From positions 330,518 to 394,517 of the forward strand of contig JAWLHQ010000003.1 in NCBI GenBank assembly GCA_041690215.1: a DNA stretch of 64,000 bases, written 5' to 3'. Positions 1,594-34,742 of the stretch are shown here, piece by piece (positions within the stretch are counted from its first letter, which is position 1; each line of letters begins with the position of its first letter). The translations under genes and the position numbers were made by a program. The DNA is from Rhodothermales bacterium (lineage in GTDB: Bacteria > Bacteroidota > Rhodothermia > Rhodothermales > DASSAV01). The notes beneath the pieces were generated by a model. The model ran no database searches, was not told the origin of the DNA, and saw only the letters and a list, made by a program, of their open reading frames with translations.

Positions 1594-2406
1594 TCATCCA
1601 GGTTGGCGGGCGTCTGCCATCCCCGCCGCCCATTCGATCCCGCCTAGAATGTGCCGCAGAAAAAGTGGTTCGGAGTAAGATTCCGACGTATGACCGAGCC
1701 CTGTATACCAGGCCCTCCCACCGGCAAATTCATGCGCCCAGGCAATAGGGTGGTCCTGCCCCATCTTTCCACCCTCGTAGGTTTGCTCATCCAGCGTCAT
1801 CAAGACGTGCACATGATCTCGCGGGTTTGAGCGGTAGTTGTACCACTCGTCGAAACGTTCCCAACGCGTAGGCAGGTGCGCCGTCGAGGGATGCATCCGG
1901 TCCACAACATCTAGGATAGCCTGCTGCGGTCTGGGATGCTCGTCGAACCACGCTCCTACGATTTCGCCATAGAAAGGCCAATCGTACTCCCCCGCTGCTG
2001 CCCCGTGAATACCTACGAATCCGCCTCCACCCCGGATGTATGCTTCGAACGCTGCCTGCTCCGCGTCATTGAGGAAATCGCCGCTGGTACTGAGGAACAC
2101 CAGCACCTCGTACTTCCCCAGGCTGTCTGAAAGAAAGATCCTCGAATCCTCCGTCGCATCAACCGTAAACCCGTTCTCGTATCCGAGGCGCCGAATGGCA
2201 CGAATACCGTCCGGGATCGAGTCATGCCGGAATTTCGCGGTCTTGGAAAAGACGAGCACGTCGTAGCGAGGAGACGTTGTCACCGGGACAGCCTGCTCCT
2301 CTGGGCCAACCTCAGAACGCGAACTCGAGCAAGCAGCGATGCTCAGCAGCACCGCGCACAGAAGACCTTGACGAAGGCCACGAAATCTCTCGAGGTATCC
2401 ATGCAT
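1594..2406 (-). CDS. ThuA-domain lipoprotein (trehalose-utilisation-like family)
   Basis: 270 aa ORF with an ATG start. Lipobox LLSIAACSS. ThuA-type motifs VLVFSKTAKFRHDSIP, GGGFVGIHGAA, RFDEWYNYR, HPIAWAHEFAGGRAWYTGLGH. Roughly 60 percent identical (by-eye count) to the ThuA part of the neighbouring 2754..5957 gene. Confidence 0.8.
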   Translation of the reverse strand: MHGYLERFRGLRQGLLCAVLLSIAACSSSRSEVGPEEQAVPVTTSPRYDVLVFSKTAKFRHDSIPDGIRAIRRLGYENGFTVDATEDSRIFLSDSLGKYEVLVFLSTSGDFLNDAEQAAFEAYIRGGGGFVGIHGAAAGEYDWPFYGEIVGAWFDEHPRPQQAILDVVDRMHPSTAHLPTRWERFDEWYNYRSNPRDHVHVLMTLDEQTYEGGKMGQDHPIAWAHEFAGGRAWYTGLGHTSESYSEPLFLRHILGGIEWAAGMADARQPG

Positions 2407-2711
2407 TGGATCCAGGCCGCCAGATCAGTTGTGGGGAAACGATTCACCGGATTCCGCTACGATGCTTGCGAACACCCGCAAGGCAGGTTGCACATCGTAT
2501 AACTACGGGGTGGACTCGTAACGAGAGCTACTCCGGGGAAGTTAACCCGACGTACAGTCTGGTGCCAGAGCCGGAGCACACAAATGAGCAGGGCCGGGAC
2601 GGAGCGGTCAAAATCCTCCAGCATAGAACTGCATACTCCGGCTCTCTCATGCAGGACTATAGTGATCCAACGATACCTCAGGTATACACCCCGGCCTGAC
2701 GCCCTACGAGA

Positions 2712-2743
2712 AGCATCCCGGAGGCTTCTACCTCCGGGATGCT
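2712..2743 (-). terminator. Hairpin directly after the stop of the ThuA-GSDH-CBM gene
   Basis: Perfect 13-bp stem agcatcccggagg / cctccgggatgct with a 6-nt loop, 11 nt beyond the stop at 2754. No clear U-tract, so an intrinsic-terminator function is assumed rather than shown. Confidence 0.5.
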
Positions 2744-2753
2744 TTGAGTCCTG

Positions 2754-5700
2754 CTAGCGCGCGCTTTGCGGTGCATCTGCCACGATGCCTTGCCCGTTAA
2801 ACCGAATCCAATCGAGCGACATAAGCGTGCCTTCACCTGTCCCTTTGAAAACGAGATAGAGGGTCGTCGTACCGCCAGGATCAGTTACGGGAACGGTGAG
2901 GTCGGTCCATCCCTCCGGCACTTGTTCGCCTTCATTGAGGCGGTGCATCTCTTCATCATGCGTCGTTACGTCACCTGCGTCTGCTGACTCTTGTAGCTGA
3001 GCCACAGTCGTATCGACCGGCGCTACCACTACCTGCGCGAGCAAGGATCCGCTCTCGGTACCGTGGCGCACTTCGATGACGCCACCTGCTTCCGGCTTCA
3101 CGCGGAACGTAAGAGATTCTATGTTCAAAAGGTTGACGGGAGCATAAGAAACCACAGCGCCGTTCGTCACGTCGAGCACGGTTTGAGCTTGACCGGCTTC
3201 ACGTTCGTTGCTAAGCGTCCGCCGCTGTGCCCCTTCAGCCGACGTGGCGAATTCAGCCTGTTTGAGGCGCGGCTGTAGCACAATCCGCTGGCGCCCTGTC
3301 AGTGCGGGCGCCCCGTTTGCTCCATCGTCCCGATAGGATGCTTCCAGCAGGACCGCCTGGTTCGTCTTGTAGCGATAGCCATCCGGGTATACGACGAAAG
3401 AGCCCTCCGGTCCGTACTTCCGCTGCAATTCCATCTCGTGCGTGTCCCGCCCCAGGTATGGTTGTACCTCGATTCGTTCCGGCTGAGCAGCATCCGATTC
3501 GGCATCACGGACCGACACCTCGTACCGGATCGGCTGGCCGTAATCGAAGAAGCCACCGTGAACGGGCCAGGTGATCGCAACTTCGGGAGCCGTGTTGCCG
3601 GCCGTGACCGGAATCTCACGGACGGCGGCCAGCCCCGTTGAGCTGGTCACTGTCAGGCGAGCCATGTACTGCCCGGGCCGGGCATAGGTATACGAACCGG
3701 TAGCTGCCGTCGCGTCGATCTGCCCGTCTCCGTCGAGGTCCCACGCATAGGTCAAGCTAGCATCCTGGCTTGTCGTATCCTCTGCGGTCGCCGAGAACCG
3801 GACGTCCAGCGACCCCGCGCCGGCGGGCTGTACCTCGGCAGCGACTACCGGCGGACGATACGGTGAACCGTAATAGTCGAGCCGAACGATCTTCTGCTCG
3901 GGGCGGCCATTGCCCCAGAAATCCGGCCCCCACTCTATCACGTAGAGCCGTCCGTCCGGCCCGAGCTCCATATCCATCGGGCGGAGAAACGTCATTTCGG
4001 TAAAGAGCGGATTGATCTTGAGAATATCGCCGTTCTCGTCCAGCTTGACCTCTTTGATCCAGTTGCGCGCCCACTCATACGCAAGGAATGTGTTATCGAA
4101 GTAAGCCGGGAGCGCGTTGGGGTGCCGCCGTCCTTCGAACCTGTCATAGCGGTATACCGGCCCAGCCATGGCTGTCCGGCCCCCCGCTTCCATTTCGGGG
4201 AACTCCTCCGAGAATCCGTACGGATACCAGATAAAGGCGGGCTGGGCGGGTGGGAGTACGCGTGCACCGGTGTTGAATCGAGAGTCGTTCACCGGGTTGT
4301 TCGGATCAAAGGGTGGACCGGCAGTCTGCGTCTCGAAATCCCAGTCACGGTACGCCTTGTTGTCACCGACGAACAAGGGCCAGCCGTAGTTGCCGGGTCC
4401 CCTCGCCTGCCCGAACTCATCATGTCCCGCCGGGCCACGCTCTTCGTTGGGCGCACCGGCATCCGGACCTACATCACCCCAGTAGAGCCAGCCGGTCTGC
4501 GGATCAATCGAGATCCGGTACGGGTTGCGGTGGCCCATCGTATAGATCTCGGGACGGCCTCCCTTTCCATCCGGGAAAAGGTTGCCCTCCGGGATCGTGT
4601 AGGAGCCGTCCGGTTGCGGTCGTATCCGGAGGATCTTGCCTCGCAGGTCATTCGTGTTGGCGGACGTGCGGCGGGCGTCCCAGGGTTCGCGGCCCGGACG
4701 GTCGTCGATGGGCGCAAAACCATCGGAAGCAAAGGGGTTCGTATTGTCGCCCGTGCTCAAGAACAGGTTACCATCCGGCCCGAACGCCAGTGATCCACCC
4801 GTGTGGCAGCACTCGATGCGCTGCACCGGCACGTCGAGCATGTCCTTCTTGCTGCTCCAATCCAGCTTGTTATCGACGATCGTGAAACGTGAGAGACGGT
4901 TCACCGACTCGGCGCCTTCCGGAGAGTAGTAAAGGTACATCCATCCGTTCTCTTCGAAATTGGGGTCGAGTGTGATGCCGAGCAATCCGTCTTCAATGAC
5001 CTCGTGGACCGGAATGAACCCGACCATGCTGGTCGTGTTTGTCTCGGGATGCCAGACGCGAACCGCCCCACCACGCTCGATAAAGAACACGCGGTTATCC
5101 GGCGCAACTGCCAGTTCGATAGGGTCGGTCACATCTTCCACGAGCACGGTCTTATTGAAGCTGCCCGTCTGTGTCGCCGCTACGTCCGCCTCGACCTGAC
5201 CGGCCACCCACTCCAGCGCGCCGACCAGATGCTGGAGGAACAGCGGCTCGCTATAGCTCTCTTCCGTGTGTCCGAGGCCCGTATAAAAGGCGCGGCCGCC
5301 CCCGAAGTTATGCGCCCACGAGATCGGGTGATCGTGCCCCATCTCTCCCCCTTCGTAGCTCGTCTCGTCCAGTGTCATCAACACATGGACATTTCCGCGC
5401 GGGTTCTCCCGGTAATTGTACCACTCATCGAAGCGGGTCCACTCCTGCGGCAGGTGCTTCGTCGCCGGATGGACACGATCGGCCACCTTGATCGTGGCAT
5501 TCTGATTCTGAGGGTGGCTCTTGAAATAGCCCCCGACAAGCTGGCCGTACCAGGGCCATTCGTACTCAGTGTCTGCCGCTGCGTGTACACCGAGAAATCC
5601 GCCTCCCTGTGCGATGTACTGCTCGAACGCTCTCTCCTGAGCCGCGTTGAGGATGTCGCCCGTGGTGCTCAGGAACACGACCGCATCAAACCGACTCAGA

Positions 5701-5957
5701 TCGTTCGGATTGAAAATGGCCGCATCCTCTGTCGCCTCTACGGCAAAGTTGTGCTGATCACCCAGCTTCTTAAATGCGGCGATGCCGGTTGGGATGGAGG
5801 AGTGCCGGAAGCCGGCTGTCTTCGAAAAGACCAGAACACGATATCGGGGAGCGGCTTCCTGCCCAAGGCTCGTTTGAACGGCCAGCGATCCATTCGCAAA
5901 TACAAGGATCAGCGGCAGCACGGCCCATGTCGTGACCTTACCTGCAAACGCCTTCAT
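2754..5957 (-). CDS. Exported multidomain protein: ThuA + PQQ-type (GSDH-like) sugar dehydrogenase beta-propeller + PKD-like + C-terminal CBM6/35-like module
   Basis: The ORF track gives 2754..6125 (1123 aa). I prefer ATG 5957 (MKAFAGKVTTWAVLPLILVFANGSLAVQT, a signal peptide). ATG 5999 is also possible. The ORF-track start overlaps eboF. Domains read from the translation: ThuA (RYRVLVFSKTAGFRHSSIP ... HPISWAHNFGGGRAFYTGLGH); propeller (IECCHTGGSLAFGPDGNLFLSTGD, LRGKILRIRPQPDGSYTIPEGNLF, YTMGHRNPYRISIDP, NYGWP); PKD-like (YAWDLDGDGQIDATAATGSYTYARPGQYMARLTVT); CBM-like end (TLYLVFKGTGEGTLMSLDWIRFNG). Confidence 0.8.
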   Translation of the reverse strand: MKAFAGKVTTWAVLPLILVFANGSLAVQTSLGQEAAPRYRVLVFSKTAGFRHSSIPTGIAAFKKLGDQHNFAVEATEDAAIFNPNDLSRFDAVVFLSTTGDILNAAQERAFEQYIAQGGGFLGVHAAADTEYEWPWYGQLVGGYFKSHPQNQNATIKVADRVHPATKHLPQEWTRFDEWYNYRENPRGNVHVLMTLDETSYEGGEMGHDHPISWAHNFGGGRAFYTGLGHTEESYSEPLFLQHLVGALEWVAGQVEADVAATQTGSFNKTVLVEDVTDPIELAVAPDNRVFFIERGGAVRVWHPETNTTSMVGFIPVHEVIEDGLLGITLDPNFEENGWMYLYYSPEGAESVNRLSRFTIVDNKLDWSSKKDMLDVPVQRIECCHTGGSLAFGPDGNLFLSTGDNTNPFASDGFAPIDDRPGREPWDARRTSANTNDLRGKILRIRPQPDGSYTIPEGNLFPDGKGGRPEIYTMGHRNPYRISIDPQTGWLYWGDVGPDAGAPNEERGPAGHDEFGQARGPGNYGWPLFVGDNKAYRDWDFETQTAGPPFDPNNPVNDSRFNTGARVLPPAQPAFIWYPYGFSEEFPEMEAGGRTAMAGPVYRYDRFEGRRHPNALPAYFDNTFLAYEWARNWIKEVKLDENGDILKINPLFTEMTFLRPMDMELGPDGRLYVIEWGPDFWGNGRPEQKIVRLDYYGSPYRPPVVAAEVQPAGAGSLDVRFSATAEDTTSQDASLTYAWDLDGDGQIDATAATGSYTYARPGQYMARLTVTSSTGLAAVREIPVTAGNTAPEVAITWPVHGGFFDYGQPIRYEVSVRDAESDAAQPERIEVQPYLGRDTHEMELQRKYGPEGSFVVYPDGYRYKTNQAVLLEASYRDDGANGAPALTGRQRIVLQPRLKQAEFATSAEGAQRRTLSNEREAGQAQTVLDVTNGAVVSYAPVNLLNIESLTFRVKPEAGGVIEVRHGTESGSLLAQVVVAPVDTTVAQLQESADAGDVTTHDEEMHRLNEGEQVPEGWTDLTVPVTDPGGTTTLYLVFKGTGEGTLMSLDWIRFNGQGIVADAPQSAR

Positions 5958-6076
5958 ACGATAGAGGAGTGAGTATGGGGTGATGGCAAATCGTGGCATT
6001 GTGTCTAGCAAAGCGCTTTCAGAACACCCAGGCACCTTGCCTAGAACACGGTGAGGGAAGATACACATTCCCCGCC

Positions 6077-7465
6077 TTATGCACGCGACGGTGCGCCCAG
6101 AAGATGAGAAAGGATTGCGCCGCACACGTCGGTAGGCATCAACCGCTCTTTTTCGAGCAACTCCGTCTGACGTGTAATAAAGAGCGGACCGTCTTTCTCC
6201 ATATCCGGCAACCGGCCATGCGAGCCGCGAACCAGTTCTCCGTTTAGCGGAATGACATCCAGAAGGTATCGGAATCCCAGCTTCTTCTGCAGCAGGCGCA
6301 GCCCTGCTTTCAACTTCGGGGCCCGGAGGTTGGGGTCGATGAACAGCTCCGCCGGATCGTAACCGGGCTTTCGGTGAATATCCACCGTCGGCGCGAAGTC
6401 GGGGGCCCGGGCATCGTCCAACCAGTAGTAATAGGTAAACCAGGCATCCGGCTCGGCGATGGCGACCAGTTCACCGGCCCGGGGATGATCCAGCCCATAA
6501 GCCCGCTTCCCCTCTTCATCCAGTACCTGTTCTACGCCAGGCACGGACGCGATGAGTTCCCGCACGGCCTGAAGCTGACCGGGATCGTTCACGTACACAT
6601 GCGCGACCTGGTGATCCGCCAGGGTGAATGCCCGGCTCGCTCCAGCGTCGAGCAACTCCCGTCCCAACTCTTCCCTCACGGCAATGTATCCGTGCTCGCG
6701 CAGCACCCGATTCAGCGAGACGGGCCGGGAGACGGGCGTGATGCCGTATTCGGAGAGCACGATTACCTGTGCGCCCCGGCTCTCGTAGAACGTGATCAGT
6801 TCCTCACAGACGGCATCTATATCCCGCAGGTCCTGCTCGACACGCGCATCATGGGGACCGTAGCGCTGGAATCCGTAATCCAGATGTGGAAGGTAGATCA
6901 GAGTCAGTGTCGGGTTGTACTCCTCATCGACCATCATGGAAGCATTCGCGATCCAGCGTGAAACGTCAATAGAGGTACCTGGCCCCCAGTACTTGAACAA
7001 GGGGAATTGCCCGAGCCGCTCCTGAACCCGGGGACGCAGATCTGCCGGATGCGTGTAGATATCAGGTAGTTTGCGCCCGTCAGCCGGGTACATCGGCCGA
7101 GGCGTCATGGAGTAATCGACGCTGGAGTACATGTTGTACCACCAGAACATGTTGGCGCACGTGAACGTGGGGTCCAGCTCTCGCGCATGCTCCCAGATCT
7201 TGGGTGCCTGTACCAGCTTGTTCGACTGCCGCCACAGCTTGACTTCGCACTCGTCCCGGAAGTACCACCCGTTACCTACGATCCCGTGCTCCGATGGCAT
7301 CACGCCCGTCATGTATGTCGCCTGGGCTGAGCACGTCACAGCCGGGAGCACACCACCTACCGGCGTGGTCTTTCCCTGCCCTGCCCATTTCGTCAGAAAC
7401 GGTGTATGCGCTCCCAACAACCCGGGCGTCAACCCCACAACATTCAACACGACCGTCTTTTTCAT
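6077..7465 (-). CDS. eboF: EboF: alkaline phosphatase / nucleotide pyrophosphatase superfamily protein
   Basis: 462 aa with an ATG start. Motifs VVGLTPGLL, LPAVTCSAQATYMTG (nucleophile-type region), IYLPHLDYGFQRYGP, RGSHGRLP. It occupies the last position of a six-gene cluster whose families and order match ebo. Confidence 0.8.
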   Translation of the reverse strand: MKKTVVLNVVGLTPGLLGAHTPFLTKWAGQGKTTPVGGVLPAVTCSAQATYMTGVMPSEHGIVGNGWYFRDECEVKLWRQSNKLVQAPKIWEHARELDPTFTCANMFWWYNMYSSVDYSMTPRPMYPADGRKLPDIYTHPADLRPRVQERLGQFPLFKYWGPGTSIDVSRWIANASMMVDEEYNPTLTLIYLPHLDYGFQRYGPHDARVEQDLRDIDAVCEELITFYESRGAQVIVLSEYGITPVSRPVSLNRVLREHGYIAVREELGRELLDAGASRAFTLADHQVAHVYVNDPGQLQAVRELIASVPGVEQVLDEEGKRAYGLDHPRAGELVAIAEPDAWFTYYYWLDDARAPDFAPTVDIHRKPGYDPAELFIDPNLRAPKLKAGLRLLQKKLGFRYLLDVIPLNGELVRGSHGRLPDMEKDGPLFITRQTELLEKERLMPTDVCGAILSHLLGAPSRA

Positions 7466-7528
7466 TCCAGACTACCTACAATCGAAATGCACAACTTACC
7501 TGATAGGAGATGGTGAGACCGGAATGTT

Positions 7529-8743
7529 TCATTGCCCTTCCTTGCCCTCTCGCATCCGCTTATCGAACTGCTCCAACACCCATTCATACTCCCTGCTGAT
7601 AGACTCCGTAATGTCTACTTTCAACTCGGGCGGCAACACATCCCACGTATAGGTTTCAATCTCGAAATGCGGGCAAATGCGTTGCGGAATCACCTCGTCC
7701 AGAGTGGCCGTAATGTCATACTGCGTCGAGCCGAGCTTGCCGTAGTGATCCACGAAGATGGGCACGTGATAATGGATACGCCACTCCTCGGCTTCTGCAT
7801 CAAGGATATTGTACACCGCCCTGGGGAGGTCGGAGTAGTGACCCAGCGTGCCATCCGGCCTGCGCTCGATGACCTGATGCAAGTACGTGTGCTCGGCAAA
7901 TGGATCGAGGAGTTCAACGACCTCGTGTCGCCCTTCCTCACTCTGAGGTATCGGAATCCTCAATGCTGAGCTGATCTGGACTTTCCCTACCTTGATTCCG
8001 TTCTCCGCGAACTGCTCGAATACGACATCTGGCTGCTCGTACTCGACGGCGAAGTGGCAAGTATCGTAGCAGACCCTGATGTGGTCCTGCAAGTCATCCA
8101 CGATCAGCATGTTGCCACTCTTGGGCAGGAGCACGTCGTTGAAAAAATGAATGGTCTCAGCCAGGTTCTCGATGAGGCAGTCCGGCTCGGGTTCGATATC
8201 GATGTGGATGAGCTTATCCGTCCGTTCCCGCAGCCGAACCAGTTCGGCCGTAACCTGCTCCAGATGAATGGCACCCAGTTCCAGCGCCTCGTGCCGCTCT
8301 CCTACCGCGAGCCATGGCTTGTAGGAGATCGGTGACGTGGAAATGCCACCTTCCATTCCCTCCGGCAATAGTTCGGCCAGGATATGGGCAAGGCGAACCG
8401 TGTAGTCCACCCGCTCCTGCGTCCGCCAGTCCGGCGCATAGACATGGTCCTTCACGATTTGCCTGTGGAAGCCGCCATACGGGAAGCCGTTCATCGTGAA
8501 GACATACATCCCGTTCGCATCGAGCCAATCTTTGAACCGGGGCAGTTCGTCACCTTCAAGGATCTCGCGCGATGCCAGATCGGAAAGCCGGAGCCCGATC
8601 CCGAACGGCTCGTCCGGTGAAAGCCGGGTCTTCAGCGCGCGGGTGTAGACGTCGAGGTTACGAAACACCTCATCCCACCGCTCACCCGGATGAATGTTGG
8701 TGCAGTACGTGAGATGGAAGAATCCGTCCGTACCGATTTGCAT
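7529..8743 (-). CDS. eboE: EboE: xylose-isomerase-like TIM-barrel protein
   Basis: The ORF track gives 7529..8818 with a GTG start. I prefer ATG 8743, which gives MQIGTDGFFHLTYCTNIHPGERW, the short N-terminus I recall for EboE proteins. The extra 25 codons are encoded by the REP-like hairpin at 8775-8807. The TIM-barrel family call rests on overall similarity as remembered and on synteny. Confidence 0.75.
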   Translation of the reverse strand: MQIGTDGFFHLTYCTNIHPGERWDEVFRNLDVYTRALKTRLSPDEPFGIGLRLSDLASREILEGDELPRFKDWLDANGMYVFTMNGFPYGGFHRQIVKDHVYAPDWRTQERVDYTVRLAHILAELLPEGMEGGISTSPISYKPWLAVGERHEALELGAIHLEQVTAELVRLRERTDKLIHIDIEPEPDCLIENLAETIHFFNDVLLPKSGNMLIVDDLQDHIRVCYDTCHFAVEYEQPDVVFEQFAENGIKVGKVQISSALRIPIPQSEEGRHEVVELLDPFAEHTYLHQVIERRPDGTLGHYSDLPRAVYNILDAEAEEWRIHYHVPIFVDHYGKLGSTQYDITATLDEVIPQRICPHFEIETYTWDVLPPELKVDITESISREYEWVLEQFDKRMREGKEGQ

Positions 8744-8774
8744 ACCTTCTCTGGCTGATGTGTCTTCAAAAAAT

Positions 8775-8807
8775 GCAATGGGGCACACCGGTGGTGTGCC
8801 CCATTGC
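8775..8807. repeat. GC-rich palindromic hairpin (REP-like) in the eboD-eboE spacer
   Basis: Perfect 15-bp stem gcaatggggcacacc / ggtgtgccccattgc with loop ggt. The core CACACCGGTGGTGTG is shared with the hairpin at 33778-33798. Confidence 0.8.
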
Positions 8808-8814
8808 GGCCATT

Positions 8815-9996
8815 TCACGCCGCGATAGAGATTTCGCTACGATCTCTCAGTATGGCGACTGCTTCGGTGTAGAGTCCGAGATCCACCTCATGCACCTCTA
8901 CACCTTTTCCGATTTGCTCCAGCAGCATGATCGTCAATTCGCCGCCGAGATGCTCCCGAAATTCCTGTAATCCCCGGAAGAGGCATCGTGGGTCATCCGG
9001 CTTGTCCAGGTGCTCTGCCATCTCGGGTGCATACAGCTTGAACCCGACGGCCTCCAGTACCGCGAGCACCCGTTCCATATCCTGCTCCGAAAGACGACCC
9101 TCGAGGTACGAATAGGTAACATCGAGCGCGATACCAATGGCGACCGCCTCGCCATGCCGGAGCTTGTAGTCCGTAAGCTGCTCCAGCTTGTGCGCTGCCC
9201 AGTGTCCGAAATCGAGCGGGCGGGAGCTACCCAGTTCGAAGGGATCACCCGACGTCGCGATGTGCTCCAGATGCAGTTCGGCGCAGCGATAGATCTGCCG
9301 TTGCATGGCCTGCATGTCGCGCTGAGCCAGAGCCGGTGCGTCCCGTTCGATCTCCGCAAAGTAACTGGCATCCTTGATGCAGGCTACCTTCACGGCTTCT
9401 GCGATGCCAGCTCGCCAGTCCCGGTCGTCCAGGGTTTCCAGGAACGAGAAATCGTTCAGCACGGCATAAGGCGTGGCAAACGTGCCCAGGAAGTTCTTCT
9501 TCCCGTACGCATTGATGCTGTTTTTTACCCCGATGGAGGCATCGTTCTGTGCCAGCACCGTCGTAGGTACCCGAATCAGGCGAATACCCCGGTGCGCCGT
9601 CGCCGCAGCATACCCCACGGCATCGATGACTGCCCCGCCACCAATAGCCACGATATAGGAGTGCCGGTCAATACCACACTCGTGTACCGCGCGGTGTATA
9701 CGTTCGATGAGGGCTGGATCGTTTTTCGCTGCCTCTCCACCCGGCAAGATGATCGGCTCGCCTGCCAGTGTCATCACGTCTTCGTGAGCCGCCGCGTAGA
9801 CCTTGACTCGATCCCAGAGATCAGGATGGTACTTCAGCACACCGCTGTCGATGGCGAACAGGAGCTTCTTCGCCTGCCCGGACTCGCCCTCCCGGACGGT
9901 ACGCGCAAGCAGCGGGTGCGATGGTTCGAACAGGCCCGTCGTGAAGTGGACCTCATACGTGAACAGCAAGGGAACGCGCTGTAGGATCGGTTTCAT
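8815..9996 (-). CDS. eboD: EboD: 3-dehydroquinate-synthase-like sugar phosphate cyclase
   Basis: 393 aa with an ATG start. DHQS-fold motifs GGGAVIDAVGYAAA, RLIRVPTTVLAQNDASIGVKNSIN, and metal-His regions HWAAHKLE and HGEAVAIG. Confidence 0.85.
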   Translation of the reverse strand: MKPILQRVPLLFTYEVHFTTGLFEPSHPLLARTVREGESGQAKKLLFAIDSGVLKYHPDLWDRVKVYAAAHEDVMTLAGEPIILPGGEAAKNDPALIERIHRAVHECGIDRHSYIVAIGGGAVIDAVGYAAATAHRGIRLIRVPTTVLAQNDASIGVKNSINAYGKKNFLGTFATPYAVLNDFSFLETLDDRDWRAGIAEAVKVACIKDASYFAEIERDAPALAQRDMQAMQRQIYRCAELHLEHIATSGDPFELGSSRPLDFGHWAAHKLEQLTDYKLRHGEAVAIGIALDVTYSYLEGRLSEQDMERVLAVLEAVGFKLYAPEMAEHLDKPDDPRCLFRGLQEFREHLGGELTIMLLEQIGKGVEVHEVDLGLYTEAVAILRDRSEISIAA

Positions 9997-10081
9997 TCCT
10001 TCTAGTTGCCGGGGGTTCTAATGTCCTGCTGATACACGGCGCCCTCACCAGTCCGTCCTTACCCCACGTACATACAAATGT

Positions 10082-11011
10082 TTATGTTACTGCAAACGCT
10101 TTGGCGAGCAGAATAGAAAAAACGAGCAGGACCGCCGTTACAAGCCCGATTACCCACCCCCCGAATCCTGCTGCAAGCGTTGCGTCCATCAAAATGAGGG
10201 AGATAACCCCTCGTTTCACGGCAGCTCGTATGTGCCCTGCCTGAGGATCCACGGCCGCCTGAATGAAGGCCGGTACGACGGCTATCGTGAAAACAAGCAA
10301 AAAGGGTACCGCCCGAATAATCTCATATTCGGGGATAACGCCCAATCCGAGCAATCCAATAATGACCAGTACAACAAACACCAGTGACACGATTACCGTA
10401 CGCCGCTGTCCACCGTGAACTTCCCCTCGGCTCACGGTGGTCACAGCCGCGATGTAGAGCACGGGCAAGATCGCCAGAAACCACAACTGCCCGACCATAA
10501 CGGGAACAGCGCTCACGCCGAGCAACAGATTGCCGCCCCGGCACATCCCCATGTTCACCGGGCCCAGAATCGAATGATGTTTCCCGTATATGTCATACGT
10601 GACGACCCACAGAGCAATGGCAAACGCGATTCCGGCACTGAGCATCGAAACCATAGCTGCGGCAGCTATACCGATGAGCAGCAGTATCGCTCCCAGGATC
10701 CCCGCATTCCGGCGCGACACACGCCCGCTCGGGATGGGTCGTTCCGGGCGTTCAGTCGCATCCAGTGCCGCATCGAAGTAGTCGTTGAGCACCACTCCGC
10801 CTCCGTACAGCCCGGCTGTCGAAAGGAGCAACCACATCAGCGATGGCAGGAGGTTCGCCCCAGTCTGCGTCCCCAGTAAGGAGACCGCCCCTGAAGCCGC
10901 GAAGCCCGCAAGAATATCGGCCAGCGCGGTCACGATGTTGGCGGGCCGCATCAATTCCAGGTATGCCCGTACCCGTGAACGTTTCGGCTGAACGGCTTCT
11001 TTCATCGACAT
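10082..11011 (-). CDS. eboC: EboC: UbiA-family prenyltransferase
   Basis: 309 aa, hydrophobic throughout (about 8-9 predicted TM segments by eye). Asp-rich prenyltransferase motif VVLNDYFDAALD. Confidence 0.85.
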   Translation of the reverse strand: MSMKEAVQPKRSRVRAYLELMRPANIVTALADILAGFAASGAVSLLGTQTGANLLPSLMWLLLSTAGLYGGGVVLNDYFDAALDATERPERPIPSGRVSRRNAGILGAILLLIGIAAAAMVSMLSAGIAFAIALWVVTYDIYGKHHSILGPVNMGMCRGGNLLLGVSAVPVMVGQLWFLAILPVLYIAAVTTVSRGEVHGGQRRTVIVSLVFVVLVIIGLLGLGVIPEYEIIRAVPFLLVFTIAVVPAFIQAAVDPQAGHIRAAVKRGVISLILMDATLAAGFGGWVIGLVTAVLLVFSILLAKAFAVT

Positions 11012-11117
11012 CGGTCAGTAGTCAGTCGTCGGTTGCGCGTGGTCGACTGCTTCGAGGGACGATACCAGCACCGGGGTTGGCACGCTGCCCTCCAACCGGC
11101 CATGGGCAACGGACCAA

Positions 11118-12047
11118 TCACTTGATGATCAACGAATCCTTATCTCTCGCCGGCATTCCCGGCTCCCGGCCTCCGCGCAGCACCGTATTGCCATTGTAGA
11201 GTTGCCGCTGGTCGATAGCAGGCGGATTGAGCCAGTCGTCCTCCTTCATCTGTCCACTCTGACCATAGGCAGCAAGAGCGTTCCCATAAGTCACCTGCCG
11301 CACGTGCTCTTCGGGAATACCTCGCTGCAGCATGAGTGTCGCCGTCTTTGGTACGGCCAGAGGATCACTGATCCCCCAGTCACATGCACTATCTACAATG
11401 ATGCGCTCCGGACCATACTTACGCACGATCTCCGTCATGCGCTCGTTACCCATCTTTGTGCTCGGGTAGATACTGAAGGCGCACCAGAACCCCCTGTCCA
11501 GCACCTCATGCACCGTCTCTTCGTTGTTGTGGTCGATGATGACCCGAGTAGGCTCCAGGCCATGCTCCAGGCACACGTCCATGCTGCGGCTCGTACCCTG
11601 CTTCTTATTTCGATGGGGAGTATGGACCAGCACCACCATGTCCAGTTCCTTTGCGAGTTCGAGCTGTTGCCGGAAATAGCGGTCCTCCAGTTCCGTCATC
11701 GCATCGTAGCCGATTTCCCCAATAGCGACCACACCCTCCTTGGCTGCGTAAAGAGGAAGCAACTCCATCACCTCTTCCGCCAGAGCCTCATTATTGGCTT
11801 CCTTCGAGTTCAGGCCGATCGTCGCATAATGCCGAATACCGAACTGCCCGGCACGAAACCGCTCCCAGCCGACGATCATGCTGAAATAATCCTGGAATGA
11901 CCCCGCATTCGTGCGCGGCTGTCCGAGCCAGAACGCCGGCTCGATTACAGCGACTACCCCTGCCGCCCGCATGGCCTCATAGTCGTCCGTCGTCCGCGAA
12001 ACCATGTGGGCGTGCGGATCGATGAACATCATGTTTTCAACTGTCAT
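11118..12047 (-). CDS. eboB: EboB: TatD-family metal-dependent hydrolase
   Basis: 309 aa. Amidohydrolase/TatD signatures FIDPHAHM, VLVHTPH, IIVDSACDWG. Confidence 0.85.
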   Translation of the reverse strand: MTVENMMFIDPHAHMVSRTTDDYEAMRAAGVVAVIEPAFWLGQPRTNAGSFQDYFSMIVGWERFRAGQFGIRHYATIGLNSKEANNEALAEEVMELLPLYAAKEGVVAIGEIGYDAMTELEDRYFRQQLELAKELDMVVLVHTPHRNKKQGTSRSMDVCLEHGLEPTRVIIDHNNEETVHEVLDRGFWCAFSIYPSTKMGNERMTEIVRKYGPERIIVDSACDWGISDPLAVPKTATLMLQRGIPEEHVRQVTYGNALAAYGQSGQMKEDDWLNPPAIDQRQLYNGNTVLRGGREPGMPARDKDSLIIK

Positions 12048-12279
12048 GGCTCTGAAGCTACTCTAAACCTGATCCGATATTGCCGAAGTGGAAAAGCTGT
12101 CCGGACGAAACGATTCCCGTTCAAAAAGACGTGGCAAACGTTCGCACCGTCACCGATCACGCCACGTGGTGACGACCTGATGCTCTCCACCATGTCAGTA
12201 TACGCAGGCACGTGAGCCTACACATGGCCTCACCGCTTTCCTACGTGGATATTCAACGAAGTCCCGTCCATATTTCCGC

Positions 12280-13176
12280 TCACCCTACGCTCCGGCTCAG
12301 GCTCTCCCACGTCAGTTCGCCCCGCTCAATACGCTGCAGCAATTCAGGCTGCGTCGCAAGAACGTCCGATGCTTCGGGTACACGGGCATGAGAAAGCGCC
12401 AGCGCTGCCGCTTGCCGGTGCAATGGATCGTCCGAAGCTAGTGCACGCTCCAGATCCTGTATGCCGCGCTGATCCGAGAACGGTCCGACGAGGCGCCACA
12501 ACTCCGGCGTGAACGTCCGCGAAGCGGCCCAACGTTCATGTACGTAGTCCAATAGCATACGCGCAAGCTCGGGGTTTGCACGCCAGTCCAGGCCCGCGAT
12601 GCGATGTAGGGGACTCCCTACAAATACCGCCTTCAGGACGAGCTGATTCCATGCCTGTTCGTCGAAATAATCGGCCGGAAATGGGTTCTCGAGCGCTACC
12701 GCATTGAATACGGCATCAATGCTGCTTCGCAAGCCCTCCTCCGCTCTCGGTACGAAGCGTTCTGGATAGGGCAGAAGTGGCAAACTCTGGTACAGGGCGA
12801 CCTGCTCACCCACATCGGCCGCAGAAAACAACCGGTCGAGCTTCTTGACGTAAGCGTCGGCATCACCTGGTGGAATGGCCAGCACAAGCAGGGTGCGCGC
12901 GGCCTGATCAACACTCCACCCTTGCGGGTGCCAGCCGGACCGGACGCGATCGGCTTCGCGCTCATCATCCGCCGACAAGTTCAGATCGGCTTTGCCGGTA
13001 TAGCGAGGCACTGCGCTGAATGCCGTGAAGAAAACGCGATCCGGTGCCCCCTCCTCGATCTGCTGCCGTTTCTCCTCCAGCCAGCGCTGGCCTTTCTCAT
13101 CTACGAGCGGGCGAATCCAGCGCAGCAGCAGATCGACCACGAGAGACGTATCTGCCTGTGATGTCGCTCCAGTCAT
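12280..13176 (-). CDS. eboA: EboA-like protein (no known catalytic motif)
   Basis: 298 aa with an ATG start. It is the first gene of the cluster. I recognise no motif, so the call rests on position, size and the identity of the five downstream genes. Confidence 0.65.
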   Translation of the reverse strand: MTGATSQADTSLVVDLLLRWIRPLVDEKGQRWLEEKRQQIEEGAPDRVFFTAFSAVPRYTGKADLNLSADDEREADRVRSGWHPQGWSVDQAARTLLVLAIPPGDADAYVKKLDRLFSAADVGEQVALYQSLPLLPYPERFVPRAEEGLRSSIDAVFNAVALENPFPADYFDEQAWNQLVLKAVFVGSPLHRIAGLDWRANPELARMLLDYVHERWAASRTFTPELWRLVGPFSDQRGIQDLERALASDDPLHRQAAALALSHARVPEASDVLATQPELLQRIERGELTWESLSRSVG

Positions 13177-13248: not shown

Positions 13249-13280
13249 AAAAGGGGCGGGCAACCTGCCCGCCCCTTTTT
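13249..13280 (-). terminator. Rho-independent terminator after the cytochrome c gene (A/T tracts on both sides, potentially bidirectional)
   Basis: aaaa ggggcgggca acc tgcccgcccc ttttt: a 10-bp GC stem, 3-nt loop and a U-tract on the minus-strand transcript, 18 nt after the stop at 13298. It separates the cytochrome c unit from eboA. Confidence 0.75.
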
Positions 13281-13297: not shown

Positions 13298-13864
13298 TCA
13301 GTCAGCTGACGGGATCCCTTTGTTTTCATCCTTCTTCAGCTCCTCAGCGGTCCAGGGCTGCTTCCGGTCCTTGGTCGCAGCACGGACCTTTGCAACGTCC
13401 TCTGCAGAAATGGCCGAAGCCTGGTTACCCCAACTGCTACGAATGTACGTCGCAAGCGCGGCGATCTCGTCATCCTTCAGGGCCGCTCCCCAGGGAGGCA
13501 TGACGCCGTTATACGTATAGCCCTTCACTTCAACCGGACCGGACATCCCGTTCATGATGATACGCACGAGCGTACCGGGATCGCCCGTCACGTGATCAGA
13601 ACCGGCAAGCGGCGGGAAAACACCTGTGACACCAGCCCCGTTCATCTGATGGCAGGAGCCGCACCGGGTAGCGTAGACCTTGGCGCCGTCTGGCGGAGCG
13701 GCCATTGCCGGGATTGCACCGATCCACCCGTGTTCCGATTCCGAACTGGCAGCCTGAGTGTTTACCAGCGGATGCACTGTCTGTACAGCAAAGAACACAA
13801 GTAAGACGGCAGAAAGGCAAAGCCCTCCACGCATGATGCGTTTGTAAGTGACTGGCTGGCTCAT
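13298..13864 (-). CDS. Class I c-type cytochrome, mono-haem, membrane-anchored or exported
   Basis: 188 aa. N-terminal hydrophobic segment LCLSAVLLVFFAV, a single CGSCH haem motif and a GVMPPW distal-Met region. Confidence 0.85.
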   Translation of the reverse strand: MSQPVTYKRIMRGGLCLSAVLLVFFAVQTVHPLVNTQAASSESEHGWIGAIPAMAAPPDGAKVYATRCGSCHQMNGAGVTGVFPPLAGSDHVTGDPGTLVRIIMNGMSGPVEVKGYTYNGVMPPWGAALKDDEIAALATYIRSSWGNQASAISAEDVAKVRAATKDRKQPWTAEELKKDENKGIPSAD

Positions 13865-14086: not shown

Positions 14087-17000
14087 CTATTTCCCCGAAC
14101 TTGCACCAGCGCCTGAGTTGGCGCTCGTCTGGCTGGCTGGCGCATTGTCGTCACTGATCCAGCGGTACCGGGTTACCTTGGCATTCGGGCCAGGTCCCCA
14201 GAATCCGTCGAACTCGGCCACGTAGAGCGTGCCGTCCGGCGCCAACTCCATCGAAATCGGCGTAGTTTCCGGCAATACATCGAACAGTTTGATGTTCGTG
14301 AGGCGCTTGGCCGGTACTTCGATCGAGTACGGGTAAGCCTTCACGCTGCCCGTCGTGTCGTTCGTCCACGTACGGTCCTCGACGTCGGCCCACTTGATCC
14401 AGCGGCGCGCCCAGTCGAAGACGAACACCTTTTCCTGGAATGCTGCCGGGAAAGCATATTCGCCATCAGACCGGTAGATCGGGCCAAACGTCGCCGAACG
14501 GCCACCTGTCGCGTAGGTGTACTCCCACATAGAGGGCGTCCAGTTCGGTATCATCTCGGGCTTCCACTCGTTGTAGAGGAGCTTCCCGTTATCGCGCGGC
14601 CAGCCGAAGTTCTCACCGCCCTTCATGGATACGTTGTATTCGTCGTACGTGGTGACTTCGTCCGGGCCTACTACGCCGATGTATACGTATCCGGTCTTGT
14701 CATCGACCTTGAACCGGTAGGGGTTGCGCAGACCATACGCATAGATTTCCCAGCGGACGCCCGGCTGTCCGAAGAACGGGTTGTCCTTCGGGATGGAGCC
14801 ATCCTTGTTGATGCGAAGGATTTTGCCGCGCAGTTCCTGGAGGTTCTGCGCCGTACGCTCCGAGTCCACAAGCCGCGACCAGTGATAGCCGCTCAGGTTG
14901 TTCTTCTCGACAAACGCCTGAACCTCCTCCTCGCTCACACCATCCTGTGGCCGTACGGAGGACTGCCCGGTATCGCCCGTGGAAACGAACAGCGTGCCGT
15001 CCGGTCCCCACTCGAGGTCGCCCGCCTGGTGGCAGCACGCAGGCTCCGTCGGAACGCGCAGGAGCACGGTCTCTGTGGACATGTCGAACTTGCCGTCGCG
15101 GAATTCAAACCGAGACAGCGTGTTGATGAACGTCTCCGGCTCGGCGTAGAACACATAGACGTACGGCTGGCCGTTGTAGAACTCCGGATCGACTTCGATG
15201 CCGAAGAGGCCATGCTCGATGTTCACCGGATCTGTGGTGTTGATCTTGGCCACCTCCCGCGTCTGGCCAGTGGCCGCATCGTACAGAAGCACTCTGCCCG
15301 TCAGTTCCGCAATCCACACATTGCCACGCTCATCCACCGCAATATCATCCGGCCACACGTTATCGACAATGACTTCTTTGATGCGCTGGCCAGAGAAATC
15401 GGCAGGAATGCGACCTGCAGCCATCCGAATGCCCTGCAGTACATGCTGGAGGAAATCCGGCTGCTTCCAGTTGTCAGCGAAATGACCGAGCTTGGTCACG
15501 AATACGCGTCCGCCGTTGTGCTTGCGGATCCAGGAGATCGGATGGTCATTGCGGCCGATATCGGCAGGTCCCTCCACGACGCCCACGCTCTCCATGTCCA
15601 GCGACAGGAGCACACGTGAGTTCCAACGCGGGTTCTCGTCCAGCGTATAGATCTCATCGCGAATGCTGAATGACTCACCCAGGTGCTCGGTCGCGGGATT
15701 ATCCGTCTCCTCAACGACGATCTCGACGTGCTGGGTCCAGGGATGTTCTTCGAACAACCCGCCGCCGACCATCTCCTTGTATTCGTCCCATCCGTAGAAG
15801 GCATCCAGGCCTGCGTGCGCGACGGCTATACCTTTACCCTGGCGCAGGAAGTCCATGATGGCCTGCCGCTGGGCTTCCGTGACGAGCACGGTTCCTTCCG
15901 GAATACCCGCAGTCCTGGTGCCATCATGATACGTGCCCGTCAGAGCGACTTTATTGTCGCCGAACACGACTTCTCCTTCCAGCTTGTCGCCGACAACATT
16001 GGCCTGTCCTTTAAACTGACCTTCATTGCCGAATGCGAAGGTCAGCTTATCGTTTTCAAATGTAACGTCCCGTAGTTCAGCCTCATTCCCGCCATCCCAG
16101 GCAACCGAGGCGGTATATGCTCCCGGCTCGCCGCGCAGGACAAGCTTACCCGTCCTGTTACCCCGTGAGGAGTTCATCTGTACATCCCACGTGGCCACGA
16201 CACCAGGAATTGCCTTGTCTGCCTTAATACGCAGAGTCGAGTTATTAAAGAAGAGAACGTCGTACTTCGCGAGGTTCTGCGCGTTGAGATCGTTCACATC
16301 CTCAGTGAAGTCGAACTCGAACTCCGTCGTCGTCTCGATCTCTCCCAGCACCCGGGTTGCCGTCTCAATAGCATCCTTATGACGGAAACCATGCGTCGCC
16401 GTCACCACGAGAACATTGATCGGATCGGCCTGTGTGTTCGTGCGGAAGACATCCGCCAGCGTTTCCGGCCCGCCCTCAGGGAGCGGCATTACGCGAATGT
16501 TGCGGTACCACACCTTCGAGAGGTCATCATGGTTCTGCAAACCGATATACCCCTGGCGACCACGGTTACCGATGAAGTCATTGACCTTCTCGCCATTGAG
16601 ATAGATCTGATAGCGCTGGCCGCGCACTTCGATCCGGTAGGTATTCCACTCTCCCGCCGGCTTGGAGGCTTTCTTCAGTGGCGCCTGGAAGCTGTACACC
16701 GAGCCGGTAACGTGCAATGGATCCTGGCTGTCGTCGATCTGGATTTCGTATCCGTTGTTGACGGCATACCAGGGGTCATCCGTCTTCTCGGGGAAACGCA
16801 CAAAGATGCCGGCGTTGGCTGAGTCGGTCGCTGCCTTCCAGTCGAGTTCGAGGACAAAATCCTTGAATGGCCGCGCCTCGTAATAGAACAGGCCCATTCC
16901 GCCCCGGCCCAGGATGGAGCCATCAGCCTGCTGTTCAAAGTGGCCCGGACCTGCCTGGGTCCAGCCTTCGAGGCTGCTTCCGTCGTAAAGCGTCACCCAC

Positions 17001-17110
17001 TGGTTCACATCCGGATCGCTTGAAGCCTGCTGCGTTCCGGCACACCCGGCCCATACCAAGGCCACCATCAGCACAAGCGCGGGACCGGCAAAGAAACGTC
17101 TTGTATTCAT
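14087..17110 (-). CDS. Exported lipoprotein fusion: DUF1080 (3-keto-disaccharide-hydrolase-like) + ThuA (with internal insert) + PQQ-type (GSDH-like) dehydrogenase propeller
   Basis: The ORF track gives 14087..17125 with a TTG start. ATG 17110 gives MNTRRFFAGPALVLMVALVWAGCAG (lipobox). DUF1080-like: WVTLYDGSSLEGW, YEIQIDD, NTYRIEVRGQRYQIYLNGEKV, GYIGLQNH. ThuA: VLVVTATHGFRHKD ... HPISWIRKHNGGRVFVTKLGH. Propeller: EPACCHQAGDLEWGPDGTLFVSTGD, LRGKILRINKDGSIPKDNPF, YAYGLRNPYRFKVD, ENFGWP. Confidence 0.8.
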   Translation of the reverse strand: MNTRRFFAGPALVLMVALVWAGCAGTQQASSDPDVNQWVTLYDGSSLEGWTQAGPGHFEQQADGSILGRGGMGLFYYEARPFKDFVLELDWKAATDSANAGIFVRFPEKTDDPWYAVNNGYEIQIDDSQDPLHVTGSVYSFQAPLKKASKPAGEWNTYRIEVRGQRYQIYLNGEKVNDFIGNRGRQGYIGLQNHDDLSKVWYRNIRVMPLPEGGPETLADVFRTNTQADPINVLVVTATHGFRHKDAIETATRVLGEIETTTEFEFDFTEDVNDLNAQNLAKYDVLFFNNSTLRIKADKAIPGVVATWDVQMNSSRGNRTGKLVLRGEPGAYTASVAWDGGNEAELRDVTFENDKLTFAFGNEGQFKGQANVVGDKLEGEVVFGDNKVALTGTYHDGTRTAGIPEGTVLVTEAQRQAIMDFLRQGKGIAVAHAGLDAFYGWDEYKEMVGGGLFEEHPWTQHVEIVVEETDNPATEHLGESFSIRDEIYTLDENPRWNSRVLLSLDMESVGVVEGPADIGRNDHPISWIRKHNGGRVFVTKLGHFADNWKQPDFLQHVLQGIRMAAGRIPADFSGQRIKEVIVDNVWPDDIAVDERGNVWIAELTGRVLLYDAATGQTREVAKINTTDPVNIEHGLFGIEVDPEFYNGQPYVYVFYAEPETFINTLSRFEFRDGKFDMSTETVLLRVPTEPACCHQAGDLEWGPDGTLFVSTGDTGQSSVRPQDGVSEEEVQAFVEKNNLSGYHWSRLVDSERTAQNLQELRGKILRINKDGSIPKDNPFFGQPGVRWEIYAYGLRNPYRFKVDDKTGYVYIGVVGPDEVTTYDEYNVSMKGGENFGWPRDNGKLLYNEWKPEMIPNWTPSMWEYTYATGGRSATFGPIYRSDGEYAFPAAFQEKVFVFDWARRWIKWADVEDRTWTNDTTGSVKAYPYSIEVPAKRLTNIKLFDVLPETTPISMELAPDGTLYVAEFDGFWGPGPNAKVTRYRWISDDNAPASQTSANSGAGASSGK

Positions 17111-17128
17111 CTTTTCGAGCTCCAAAAA

Positions 17129-18007
17129 TTAACGACTGACCAGCCCGGCCGACTCCGCCTCACGCAGGGCCGTATACAGACCGCCTTCCATCTTTTCCGG
17201 TTCTACGGTACCGTCGTTGTCGGCATCCACGCCATTCAGGTACTTTTCGATGAGACGGGTCATATCGGCAGCATGCTTCCGAGCCATTTCCACGTCCCCC
17301 TCATAATCCGTCTTCATGATATTGACGGCTTGGGAGTAGGCCTCGTAAAGCCAGCCCGTATCAGCTGTGGAGTTCCAGAACTCCGGCGAAGAAGTCCATT
17401 CTTCGGTCAGGCTGATGCGGGGCTGGCGCTCATCCCCTTTCAGCCCAACACGCAGCCGCATCCAGCCAATAACATTGTTCAGCGATGCAGCGATGCGCTC
17501 GGCACGCTGCCGGTCTGCAGCCGGAGTGTTTTCATCTTTGGCCAGCGCTTCCAGGTGGTCACGCAGGTAACGCGCCCGTCCTGCAATTCCCAGCTTCTCA
17601 GGATCCGTAATGGTGGGCGGTTTCGTGCCGTAACGAGCAGTCCACATGGAGTCGAACTCGGCCCCGCTCGTCTGCCACAGCACCTTCCACCCGTGTGCCG
17701 GAACGTCACCGAACGGCTCGGCCTCAACCATTCCCGACTTCATGCCCCAGACGGTCTCAAAAACCTGGTCGGCACCTGCCTTTACCTCTTCAACGGTTGT
17801 TGCTTTCTCGGCGGCACGACTGGCTGCTAGCGCCTGTTCACCGAGCTTCACTATATCCTGTAGATATGCTCCGGCATCAATCTGCGAAGCCTGCGCAGAG
17901 GTCAGATTCAGGTGTCCGCCGGCTCCCCAGAGGAGCCCTACCAAACTCAGGATGGCAACGCGTGAGCGTACACCCCCACCTCGTGTGATTGGTTGTGTCA
18001 TGTCCAT
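17129..18007 (-). CDS. Hypothetical exported, probably all-helical protein with a C-terminal EF-hand-like loop
   Basis: 292 aa with an ATG start. Signal-like segment VAILSLVGLLWGAGG...SAQA. Ala/Glu/Arg-rich helical composition. A DADNDGTVEPEKME (DxDxDG-type) loop lies near the C-terminus. Its stop is 18 nt upstream of my preferred start (17110) of the next gene (3 nt from the ORF-track TTG start at 17125). I recognise no family. Confidence 0.5.
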   Translation of the reverse strand: MDMTQPITRGGGVRSRVAILSLVGLLWGAGGHLNLTSAQASQIDAGAYLQDIVKLGEQALAASRAAEKATTVEEVKAGADQVFETVWGMKSGMVEAEPFGDVPAHGWKVLWQTSGAEFDSMWTARYGTKPPTITDPEKLGIAGRARYLRDHLEALAKDENTPAADRQRAERIAASLNNVIGWMRLRVGLKGDERQPRISLTEEWTSSPEFWNSTADTGWLYEAYSQAVNIMKTDYEGDVEMARKHAADMTRLIEKYLNGVDADNDGTVEPEKMEGGLYTALREAESAGLVSR

Positions 18008-34513: not shown

Positions 34514-34742
34514 TGCTTTCTGCGAGCGATCCTGCTTGCACACCGTATCCCTTCCGACCTCCCATCTGATAGCAGATCTGCGGTCTTCCGGTACAGACGT
34601 ACGCATGGCGGCTTTTGCGGTCCGGCTGCGTCTATACCAGCGAACACCGCGCCCGAAATGGTGATGCGCCGTGTGTGCGGGACCGAACCGGAACGACCGG
34701 AGGCCTGCCATGAGGTTTCTCCGGCCCCACCCAGGATCTGCC

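Follow-up and report, generated by a model that had tools for sequence, protein, structure and literature searches.

A complete ebo gene cluster in an uncultured Rhodothermales bacterium and its possible link to thallusin-type meroterpenoids

In this article, I will discuss an ebo gene cluster carried by a 64,000-nucleotide stretch of DNA (hereafter the window) from a Rhodothermales bacterium, positions 330,518 to 394,517 of contig JAWLHQ010000003.1 in assembly GCA_041690215.1, and consider what this cluster might make. Six consecutive open reading frames (ORFs) in the window ORF list, all on the minus strand between positions 6077 and 13176 and transcribed in the order eboA, eboB, eboC, eboD, eboE and eboF, are almost certainly an ebo cluster. 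It is about 7 kb in size, possesses EboA rather than EboG, and is a complete, apparently functional copy of a kind already known, here from an uncultured Rhodothermales; the initial annotation of this DNA had likewise described a complete eboA-F set in canonical order, and both the coordinates and the family models bear this out. With moderate confidence, I read it as a cluster making a farnesylated hydroxyquinoline-carboxylate meroterpenoid of the saccharoquinoline/thallusin family. Thallusin is an algal growth signal (10.64898/2026.05.21.724671), and if the genotype rule proposed in that May 2026 bioRxiv preprint holds, this uncultured lineage becomes a predicted producer of thallusin-type morphogens. 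The cluster is of lower interest than the initial annotation judged because a general function for ebo genes has recently been reported, and only three aspects of the window copy go beyond the ordinary, namely a terminator-like hairpin inside the cluster, the predicted fold of EboA and the linkage to a cytochrome c gene.

Family evidence for the six proteins

The window proteins were searched with NCBIfam and Pfam profiles, each at the model's own cut-off, and family scores of the size obtained for the Ebo proteins are not something that chance can yield. EboA (12280-13176, 298 aa) reaches 343.8 bits on NF035937, the EboA_family model (cut-off 320), and 185 bits on NF035938 (cut-off 50), and PF28008 is assigned on the identical protein; EboE (7529-8743, 404 aa) reaches 497.8 bits on the TIM_EboE equivalog NF035939 (cut-off 250). 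Comparison of precisely these two ORFs with the EboA and EboE models was a check proposed in the initial annotation, and both score above cut-off. EboC (10082-11011, 309 aa) scores 395.4 bits on the EboC equivalog NF035940 (cut-off 250), and EboD (8815-9996, 393 aa) possesses both DHQ_synthase domains and scores 588.9 bits on NF004852 (cut-off 333). The remaining two proteins are recognized by Pfam: EboB (11118-12047, 309 aa) matches TatD_DNase PF01026 (4e-18, 66 bits, cut-off 27), with no EboB-specific curated model turning up in the NCBIfam scan, and EboF (6077-7465, 462 aa) is matched over its full length by Phosphodiest PF01663 (6e-61, 207 bits, cut-off 23). By sequence, eboB is thus predicted to encode a TatD-like metal-dependent hydrolase of amidohydrolase fold, eboC a membrane prenyltransferase of the UbiA type, eboD a sugar phosphate cyclase of the ebo type resembling 3-dehydroquinate synthase (DHQS), and eboF a type I phosphodiesterase resembling nucleotide pyrophosphatases/phosphodiesterases, within the alkaline-phosphatase superfamily.

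The start of eboE merits a comment, given that the longest ORF for this gene opens at a GTG codon at 8818. The match to the EboE model begins at residue 36 of that longer ORF, the EboE homologues start with MQIG, and in an independent gene call the identical metagenome contigs yield a protein of 404 aa; because the model, the homologues and the independent call all begin there, I place the start at the ATG at 8743, which is also where the initial annotation had put it.

AroB, the DHQS of the shikimate pathway, shares its fold with EboD and belongs to the same superfamily of NAD- and metal-dependent cyclases, and the solved structures nearest to EboD by sequence are genuine DHQS enzymes only (2.6e-43). 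A comparison of EboD with genuine AroB was also among the checks proposed earlier, and EboD groups with the ebo-linked cyclases: on the aroB model TIGR01357 it scores 224.7 bits, under the cut-off of 305, versus the 588.9 bits on NF004852, and the candidate identity as AroB was rejected on these grounds. Similarly, the EboD proteins within the ebo clusters of two other Rhodothermales metagenome-assembled genomes (MAGs) and of a third locus score 566-616 bits on NF004852 and lie below the aroB cut-off; EboD of the window is itself 74% identical to its counterpart in locus L175. Because EboD proteins inside several ebo clusters match NF004852 and miss the aroB cut-off, NF004852 is in practice the EboD family. 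This model (PRK06203) is an equivalog that NCBI names 3-dehydroquinate synthase, and automated annotation therefore mislabels mannose-6-phosphate cyclases of the EboD type as shikimate-pathway AroB, a naming that will continue to invite wrong calls. EboD homologues are reported to take mannose-6-phosphate and not 3-deoxy-D-arabino-heptulosonate 7-phosphate as their substrate (PMC12904256).

Among the six Ebo proteins, hydrophobic segments occur in EboC only, with at least seven of them and a conserved NDYFDAALD motif at residues 76-84, and the other five are predicted to be soluble and without a signal sequence. The best solved relative of EboB is the uncharacterized archaeal TatD-fold protein AF_1765 (3guw, 1.7e-22), and EboB is 72-78% identical to the EboB proteins of 69 ebo loci. 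EboF is 61-71% identical to the EboF proteins of 70 loci and has just one solved-structure match, a weak one, to phosphonoacetate hydrolase (1ei6). Residues 1-12 of EboF read KTVVLNVVGLT, and the Asn in this stretch is conserved in at least 95% of EboF homologues. Enzymes of the alkaline-phosphatase superfamily usually carry a metal-binding Asp, in a 'DG' motif, at this position.

No solved structure was matched by sequence search for either EboA or EboE. The AlphaFold model of EboA, with a mean predicted local distance difference test score (pLDDT) of 95.9, is a solenoid of 18 helices, for which Foldseek returns HEAT/ARM-type repeat proteins only, none of them at E<=1e-3. For EboA the high-confidence prediction is a soluble, all-helical, HEAT/ARM-like solenoid without enzymatic function, which fits a role as scaffold. 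In Actinobacteria EboA is fused to a xylose-isomerase-like (EboE-like) domain, and elsewhere EboG replaces EboA (PMC5133447); because of the solenoid model together with these reported fusions and replacements, I suggest that EboA probably has no catalytic activity of its own and acts as a scaffold or partner subunit, with EboE as its likely partner. EboE itself is modeled as a TIM barrel (pLDDT 89.6), and its Foldseek matches include the Art22 isomerase (3.7e-7), xylose isomerase, the 3-dehydroshikimate dehydratase AsbF (2e-5), the inosose isomerase IolI (2.8e-5) and UlaE, while comparison of EboE homologues reveals invariant His, Glu and Asp positions. Because its structural matches include TIM barrels that act on inosose and dehydroshikimate, EboE is probably a metal-dependent isomerase or dehydratase working on an inosose (cyclitol) intermediate on its way toward an aromatic ring.

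The likely product and its rivals

The initial annotation had regarded the small-molecule product of ebo clusters as unidentified, a view that has been overtaken by work published between 2024 and 2026. EboC homologues (termed 'Ubi-297') farnesylate 8-hydroxyquinoline-2-carboxylate (8-HQA) and quinaldate, and quinoline acceptors are preferred by EboC in vitro (PMC9235831). In the preprint, thallusin and saccharoquinoline are linked to the ebo genes of five phyla: in an initial set of 35 strains drawn from four phyla, ebo genes were present in 27/27 thallusin producers and in 0/8 non-producers, and in cyanobacteria both ebo carriers tested (including Nostoc punctiforme) make thallusin and one ebo-less strain does not (10.64898/2026.05.21.724671). 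In the same study, labelled L-aspartate entered the quinoline core in Maribacter, EboC from three phyla farnesylated 6,7,8-trihydroxyquinaldate in vitro, and thallusin was lost from Stieleria maiorica on single deletion of eboB, eboC, eboE or eboF (10.64898/2026.05.21.724671). Furthermore, Bacteroidota are reported there to carry the complete eboABCDEF operon (10.64898/2026.05.21.724671), which is the layout seen in the window, and by the family models the window cluster has the genotype that the preprint assigns to thallusin producers. By analogy with these strains, it is somewhat likely that the product of the window cluster belongs to the thallusin/saccharoquinoline family.

How would the six proteins cooperate? 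Transcription would start past the terminator that follows the cytochrome c gene upstream of eboA. EboD would supply a cyclitol (an inosose) for the later steps, a reaction demonstrated for its homologues (PMC12904256), and soluble cytoplasmic enzymes would turn this cyclitol and L-aspartate into trihydroxyquinaldic acid, with EboE acting as a TIM-barrel isomerase or dehydratase on the inosose, EboB as a hydrolase or cyclase of amidohydrolase fold, EboF as a phosphoryl-transfer enzyme and EboA as a helical-repeat scaffold that probably pairs with EboE, these four roles being the assignments that I infer for the individual proteins. EboC would attach farnesyl from farnesyl diphosphate and may also cyclize it, and an oxidative ring-opening step, for which the enzyme is unassigned, would give thallusin.

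The deletion experiments also bear on a very different proposal, in which EboB (TatD-like) and EboE (of AP-endonuclease-2/xylose-isomerase fold) act on DNA in a nuclease or self-resistance function, a DNA-acting role having been put forward for YtkR4/YtkR5-like pairs in ebo-like actinobacterial clusters (10.1101/2024.09.16.613364). Pfam does place EboB in TatD_DNase and, weakly, EboE in AP_endonuc_2. However, EboB and YtkR4 agree at only about 24% of their residues, the best structural matches of EboE are sugar/cyclitol isomerases and dehydratases and not endonuclease IV, and deletion of eboB or eboE ends thallusin synthesis (10.64898/2026.05.21.724671), making a nuclease function for the window proteins highly improbable.

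Several points weigh against assigning the window cluster to this family of meroterpenoids. The link between ebo and thallusin comes from one preprint that is not peer reviewed and that has no Rhodothermales strain among those tested; the roles of EboA, EboB, EboE and EboF are biochemically unassigned, and the oxidative conversion to thallusin is without a known enzyme. Because of the terminator-like hairpin inside the cluster, co-expression of the six genes is not assured either. In addition, the genetics of N. punctiforme tied ebo to export of the scytonemin monomer (PMC6282210), and considering this export phenotype together with the nematode-repellence phenotype in Pseudomonas, pleiotropic or lineage-specific roles are possible.

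The Nostoc observations are the origin of the metabolite-traffic model, the source of the NCBI name 'metabolite traffic protein', in which the Ebo proteins would move a metabolite; it is also how the initial annotation read the cluster. N. punctiforme ebo mutants are described as piling up scytonemin monomer in the cytoplasm (PMC6282210), EboC is an integral membrane protein, and a periplasmic cytochrome c is a conserved neighbor in the window lineage, all of which count in favor of this model. The initial annotation had noted that the window lacks scytonemin genes, and indeed no scy families, and no other obvious cargo pathway, appear among its annotated ORFs; the sole trace is a sub-threshold ScyE_fam match of 25 bits on a beta-propeller dehydrogenase. 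With no linked scyA-F families among those ORFs and a host that is not a cyanobacterium, the cluster is not of the scytonemin-associated type. The initial annotation had also pictured a prenylated, phosphorylated, cyclitol-like membrane carrier, which does not match the chemistry since reported and is unlikely because the cyclase and prenyltransferase reactions both give products free of phosphate, as Yurchenko et al. pointed out in 2016 (PMC5133447). The absence of phosphate from both products counts against traffic as well, as does the preference of EboC for quinoline acceptors, and the preprint ascribes the Nostoc phenotype to indirect effects while detecting thallusin in N. punctiforme itself (10.64898/2026.05.21.724671); I therefore find it improbable that the window cluster is primarily devoted to metabolite traffic.

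A closer competitor accepts the shared early steps and proposes another end product, such as a different prenylated quinoline or a pathway that stops at a saccharoquinoline-like compound, to which lineage-specific tailoring, or redox reactions involving the adjacent cytochrome c and dehydrogenase genes, could contribute. Drimane-quinoline meroterpenoids are described elsewhere, saccharoquinoline (PMC6410326) and the streptoquinolines (PMC12862604) being examples from other bacteria, and the oxidative step on the way to thallusin still awaits an enzyme. The Ebo proteins of the window are also only 53-78% identical to those of the 80 genome loci that were fetched, including Nostoc, a genus in which thallusin has been detected, and the cytochrome c gene is kept in the closest relatives and recurs beside two distant ebo-like loci. 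Against this stand the detection of thallusin in all of the ebo carriers tested, which span five phyla and differ greatly in gene organization (10.64898/2026.05.21.724671), the terminator hairpins that part the cytochrome c gene from eboA, and the other Rhodothermales ebo clusters that are without a cytochrome neighbor. I consider a different end product unlikely, and a member of the thallusin/saccharoquinoline family the preferred expectation.

Transcription, host and neighboring genes

The intergenic spacers from A-B through to E-F measure 232, 106, 85, 71 and 63 nt, and it is the eboD-eboE spacer that holds the most unusual feature of the cluster, a candidate intrinsic terminator or attenuator hairpin at 8767-8807 on the minus strand that was detected both by the terminator scan and as inverted repeat I1. 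It consists of a 15-bp stem that is 100% complementary and a 3-nt loop, followed by AUUUUUUG (the U-run), and it ends 24 nt before the eboE start codon; its predicted folding energy of -39.1 kcal/mol (z = -4.26) was equaled by 0/200 shuffles, and no population variants fall inside it. No fetched relative has the hairpin in its D-E spacer, not even L175, the closest one with that junction, and it was accordingly rejected as a conserved regulatory structure; it was likewise rejected as a dispersed repeat element, being single copy in the window. The hairpin is built like an intrinsic terminator and, judging from that form, probably attenuates or splits transcription in the host species, in which case the genes may be expressed as eboABCD plus eboEF, with the latter reached by read-through or by initiation of its own. 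The single six-gene transcript assumed in the initial annotation is weakened by such a strong terminator-like structure.

A second hairpin, at 13249-13279, is GC-rich and flanked by A and T runs in the manner of a bidirectional terminator (inverted repeat I2, 14 nt, 100% complementary, also found by the terminator scan). It sits between the cytochrome c gene and eboA, has counterparts at the equivalent place in loci L087 and L089, and delimits the ebo transcription unit on its upstream side. No terminator-like site was found by the terminator scan between eboF and the next gene. The eboA-eboB spacer (12048-12279, minus strand) is long, at 232 nt versus 44-85 nt in close relatives, and searching it for a regulatory RNA or small ORF gave a fold z of -0.14, ORFs that were short and unconvincing, and no Rfam match. 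Promoters of the sigma-70 consensus were not found between 5800 and 14200, a consensus that is uninformative for the host phylum.

As for the host, PurF of the window shares 85% identity with a protein from a Rhodothermales MAG and 80% with the PurF of Rhodocaloribacter litoris, and because of this identity to Rhodothermales proteins I take the host to be an uncultured member of this order (NCBI phylum Rhodothermota). Contigs of the same species, at 99.8-99.9% nucleotide identity, turn up in six or more public sequencing runs or metagenomes. The ebo genes in five of the same-species contigs display 13 synonymous and 7 non-synonymous variants, with no stop codons and no frameshifts. Measured against 60-80 homologues, the window Ebo proteins preserve 92-97% of the alignment columns in which conservation reaches 95% or more, and most of their departures are conservative. 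The cluster is thus intact, native and under purifying selection, and recent horizontal transfer was considered and rejected, since both the GC content of the cluster (0.58) and its GC skew match the rest of the window. Five of the six aligned same-species contigs, from different runs, end at 7125-7130 within eboF, which may reflect a site that varies among strains or a break in the assemblies.

When EboE was used to scan species-representative genomes, 568 relatives were obtained, the closest of them only 58% identical. When 19 window proteins were compared with the 80 fetched genome loci by tblastn, all six Ebo proteins found matches at 45-78% identity and the flanking genes in none; the matching ebo clusters come from other Rhodothermales, Balneolales and cyanobacteria, and in a neighbor-joining tree of the six proteins the window falls deep on the Rhodothermales/Balneolales side, a placement that likewise speaks against recent horizontal transfer.

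Directly upstream of eboA lies a gene for a monoheme c-type cytochrome (13298-13864, minus strand), which matches PF00034 and PF13442, has one CxxCH motif and possesses one N-terminal hydrophobic segment that could be a signal or an anchor. Orthologues of 55-61% identity occupy the same position in the closest relatives (L087, 9377-9853; L088, 868-1440; L089, 9340-9900), of which L087 and L088 belong to a Rhodothermales MAG lineage and L089 has otherwise different upstream genes; in L087 and L089, as in the window, a terminator hairpin separates the cytochrome gene from eboA. A metagenome scan seeded with these cytochromes led mostly to unrelated contexts, with the exceptions of L102 and L123, two loci from unrelated lineages in which a cytochrome c homologue (L102, 5908-6366; L123, 18-530) is followed by an ORF of 100-115 aa and then by an eboB-like gene cut by the contig end. 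This small ORF is conserved (L102, 6381-6728; L123, 1892-2194; both plus strand), has no NCBIfam match, and may be a candidate 'EboG'. A cytochrome c gene beside ebo is absent in the 80 genome loci and in loci L170-L173, and no cytochrome is mentioned in the thallusin preprint or in the 2016 description of the operon.

What could such a cytochrome do? It is a conserved neighbor outside the canonical cluster and a possible accessory to it, and a functional role for a periplasmic cytochrome c in the ebo pathway of some lineages strikes me as doubtful. It is possible that it carries electrons for aromatization of the cyclitol or in the ring opening that converts saccharoquinoline to thallusin, and its presence beside both eboA-type and putative eboG-type loci makes it a candidate for the missing oxidative step of the pathway. 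The linkage may reflect inherited synteny, or a cytochrome that serves the adjacent dehydrogenase of the ThuA/glucose-sorbosone dehydrogenase (GSDH) type, which the window shares with L087 and which L089, L102 and L123 lack.

Genes with ThuA domains lie on both sides of the cluster (1594-6125 and 14087-18007, minus strand), and two of the flanking proteins, each exceeding 1000 aa, fuse ThuA to glucose/sorbosone-dehydrogenase propellers, one of them with a 3-keto-disaccharide-hydrolase domain and the other with PKD and CBM6 domains. These ThuA/GSDH/3-keto-disaccharide-hydrolase genes (1594-6125, 14087-17125) were rejected as cluster members, having no homologue by ebo in the 80 loci or in L170-L173, and the upstream block consisting of a hypothetical protein (hyp292), a large dehydrogenase and the cytochrome c is kept only in the nearest relative, L087. 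Two more distant genes were examined as suppliers of substrate: an aspartate-aminotransferase-like gene (18526-19743) was rejected as the aspartate step, being 5 kb away, below all equivalog cut-offs and absent near ebo in L087 and L089, and a phosphohexomutase (30403-31812) gained no support as the source of mannose-6-phosphate, being GlmM-like, 17 kb away and below cut-offs.

Farther along the window, the region 34671-38410 has a GC peak of 0.66 at 36-38 kb and long overlapping ORFs on both strands, of which those on the plus strand can be assigned to families (a TonB-dependent receptor and a BNR-repeat protein) and those on the minus strand match none. On the plus strand at 42963-46140, the gene for a GAF-SpoIIE phosphatase precedes one for a HATPase_c_2 protein, an arrangement that resembles a partner-switching regulatory pair and has no connection with ebo.

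Relation to known ebo systems

Three named systems provide the comparison for the window cluster. The scytonemin-associated ebo genes of N. punctiforme (Klicki et al., 2018, PMC6282210) encode homologues of all six window Ebo proteins, at 53-78% identity, but there eboD is divergent from eboABCEF and scy genes are linked, whereas the window copy is collinear and scy genes were not found among its annotated ORFs. The divergent eboD is seen in 38 Nostoc-type loci, some cyanobacteria have insertions of 3-4 kb between eboC and eboD, and in Fodinibius the genes are arranged as CBA and DEF, again divergently. The EDB locus of Pseudomonas fluorescens NZI7, associated with nematode repellence, carries counterparts of all six ebo genes and is reported to differ from the window cluster in having another gene order and three additional genes (PMC12904256).

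The closest resemblance is to the ABCDEF-type operon known from Bacteroidota and from the plastids of eustigmatophytes (PMC5133447), a collinear order that is also present in 20 of the fetched loci, including the Rhodothermales loci L010, L059 and L071, and likewise in L170 and L172. Compared with this type, the window copy has longer spacers (232 nt for A-B and 71 nt for D-E, versus 6-21 nt for D-E in L170 and L172) and adds the species-specific eboD-eboE hairpin and the conserved cytochrome c gene upstream. It nevertheless has the same six families in the same order on a single strand as this operon type, the Maribacter representative of which has been tied to thallusin (10.64898/2026.05.21.724671).

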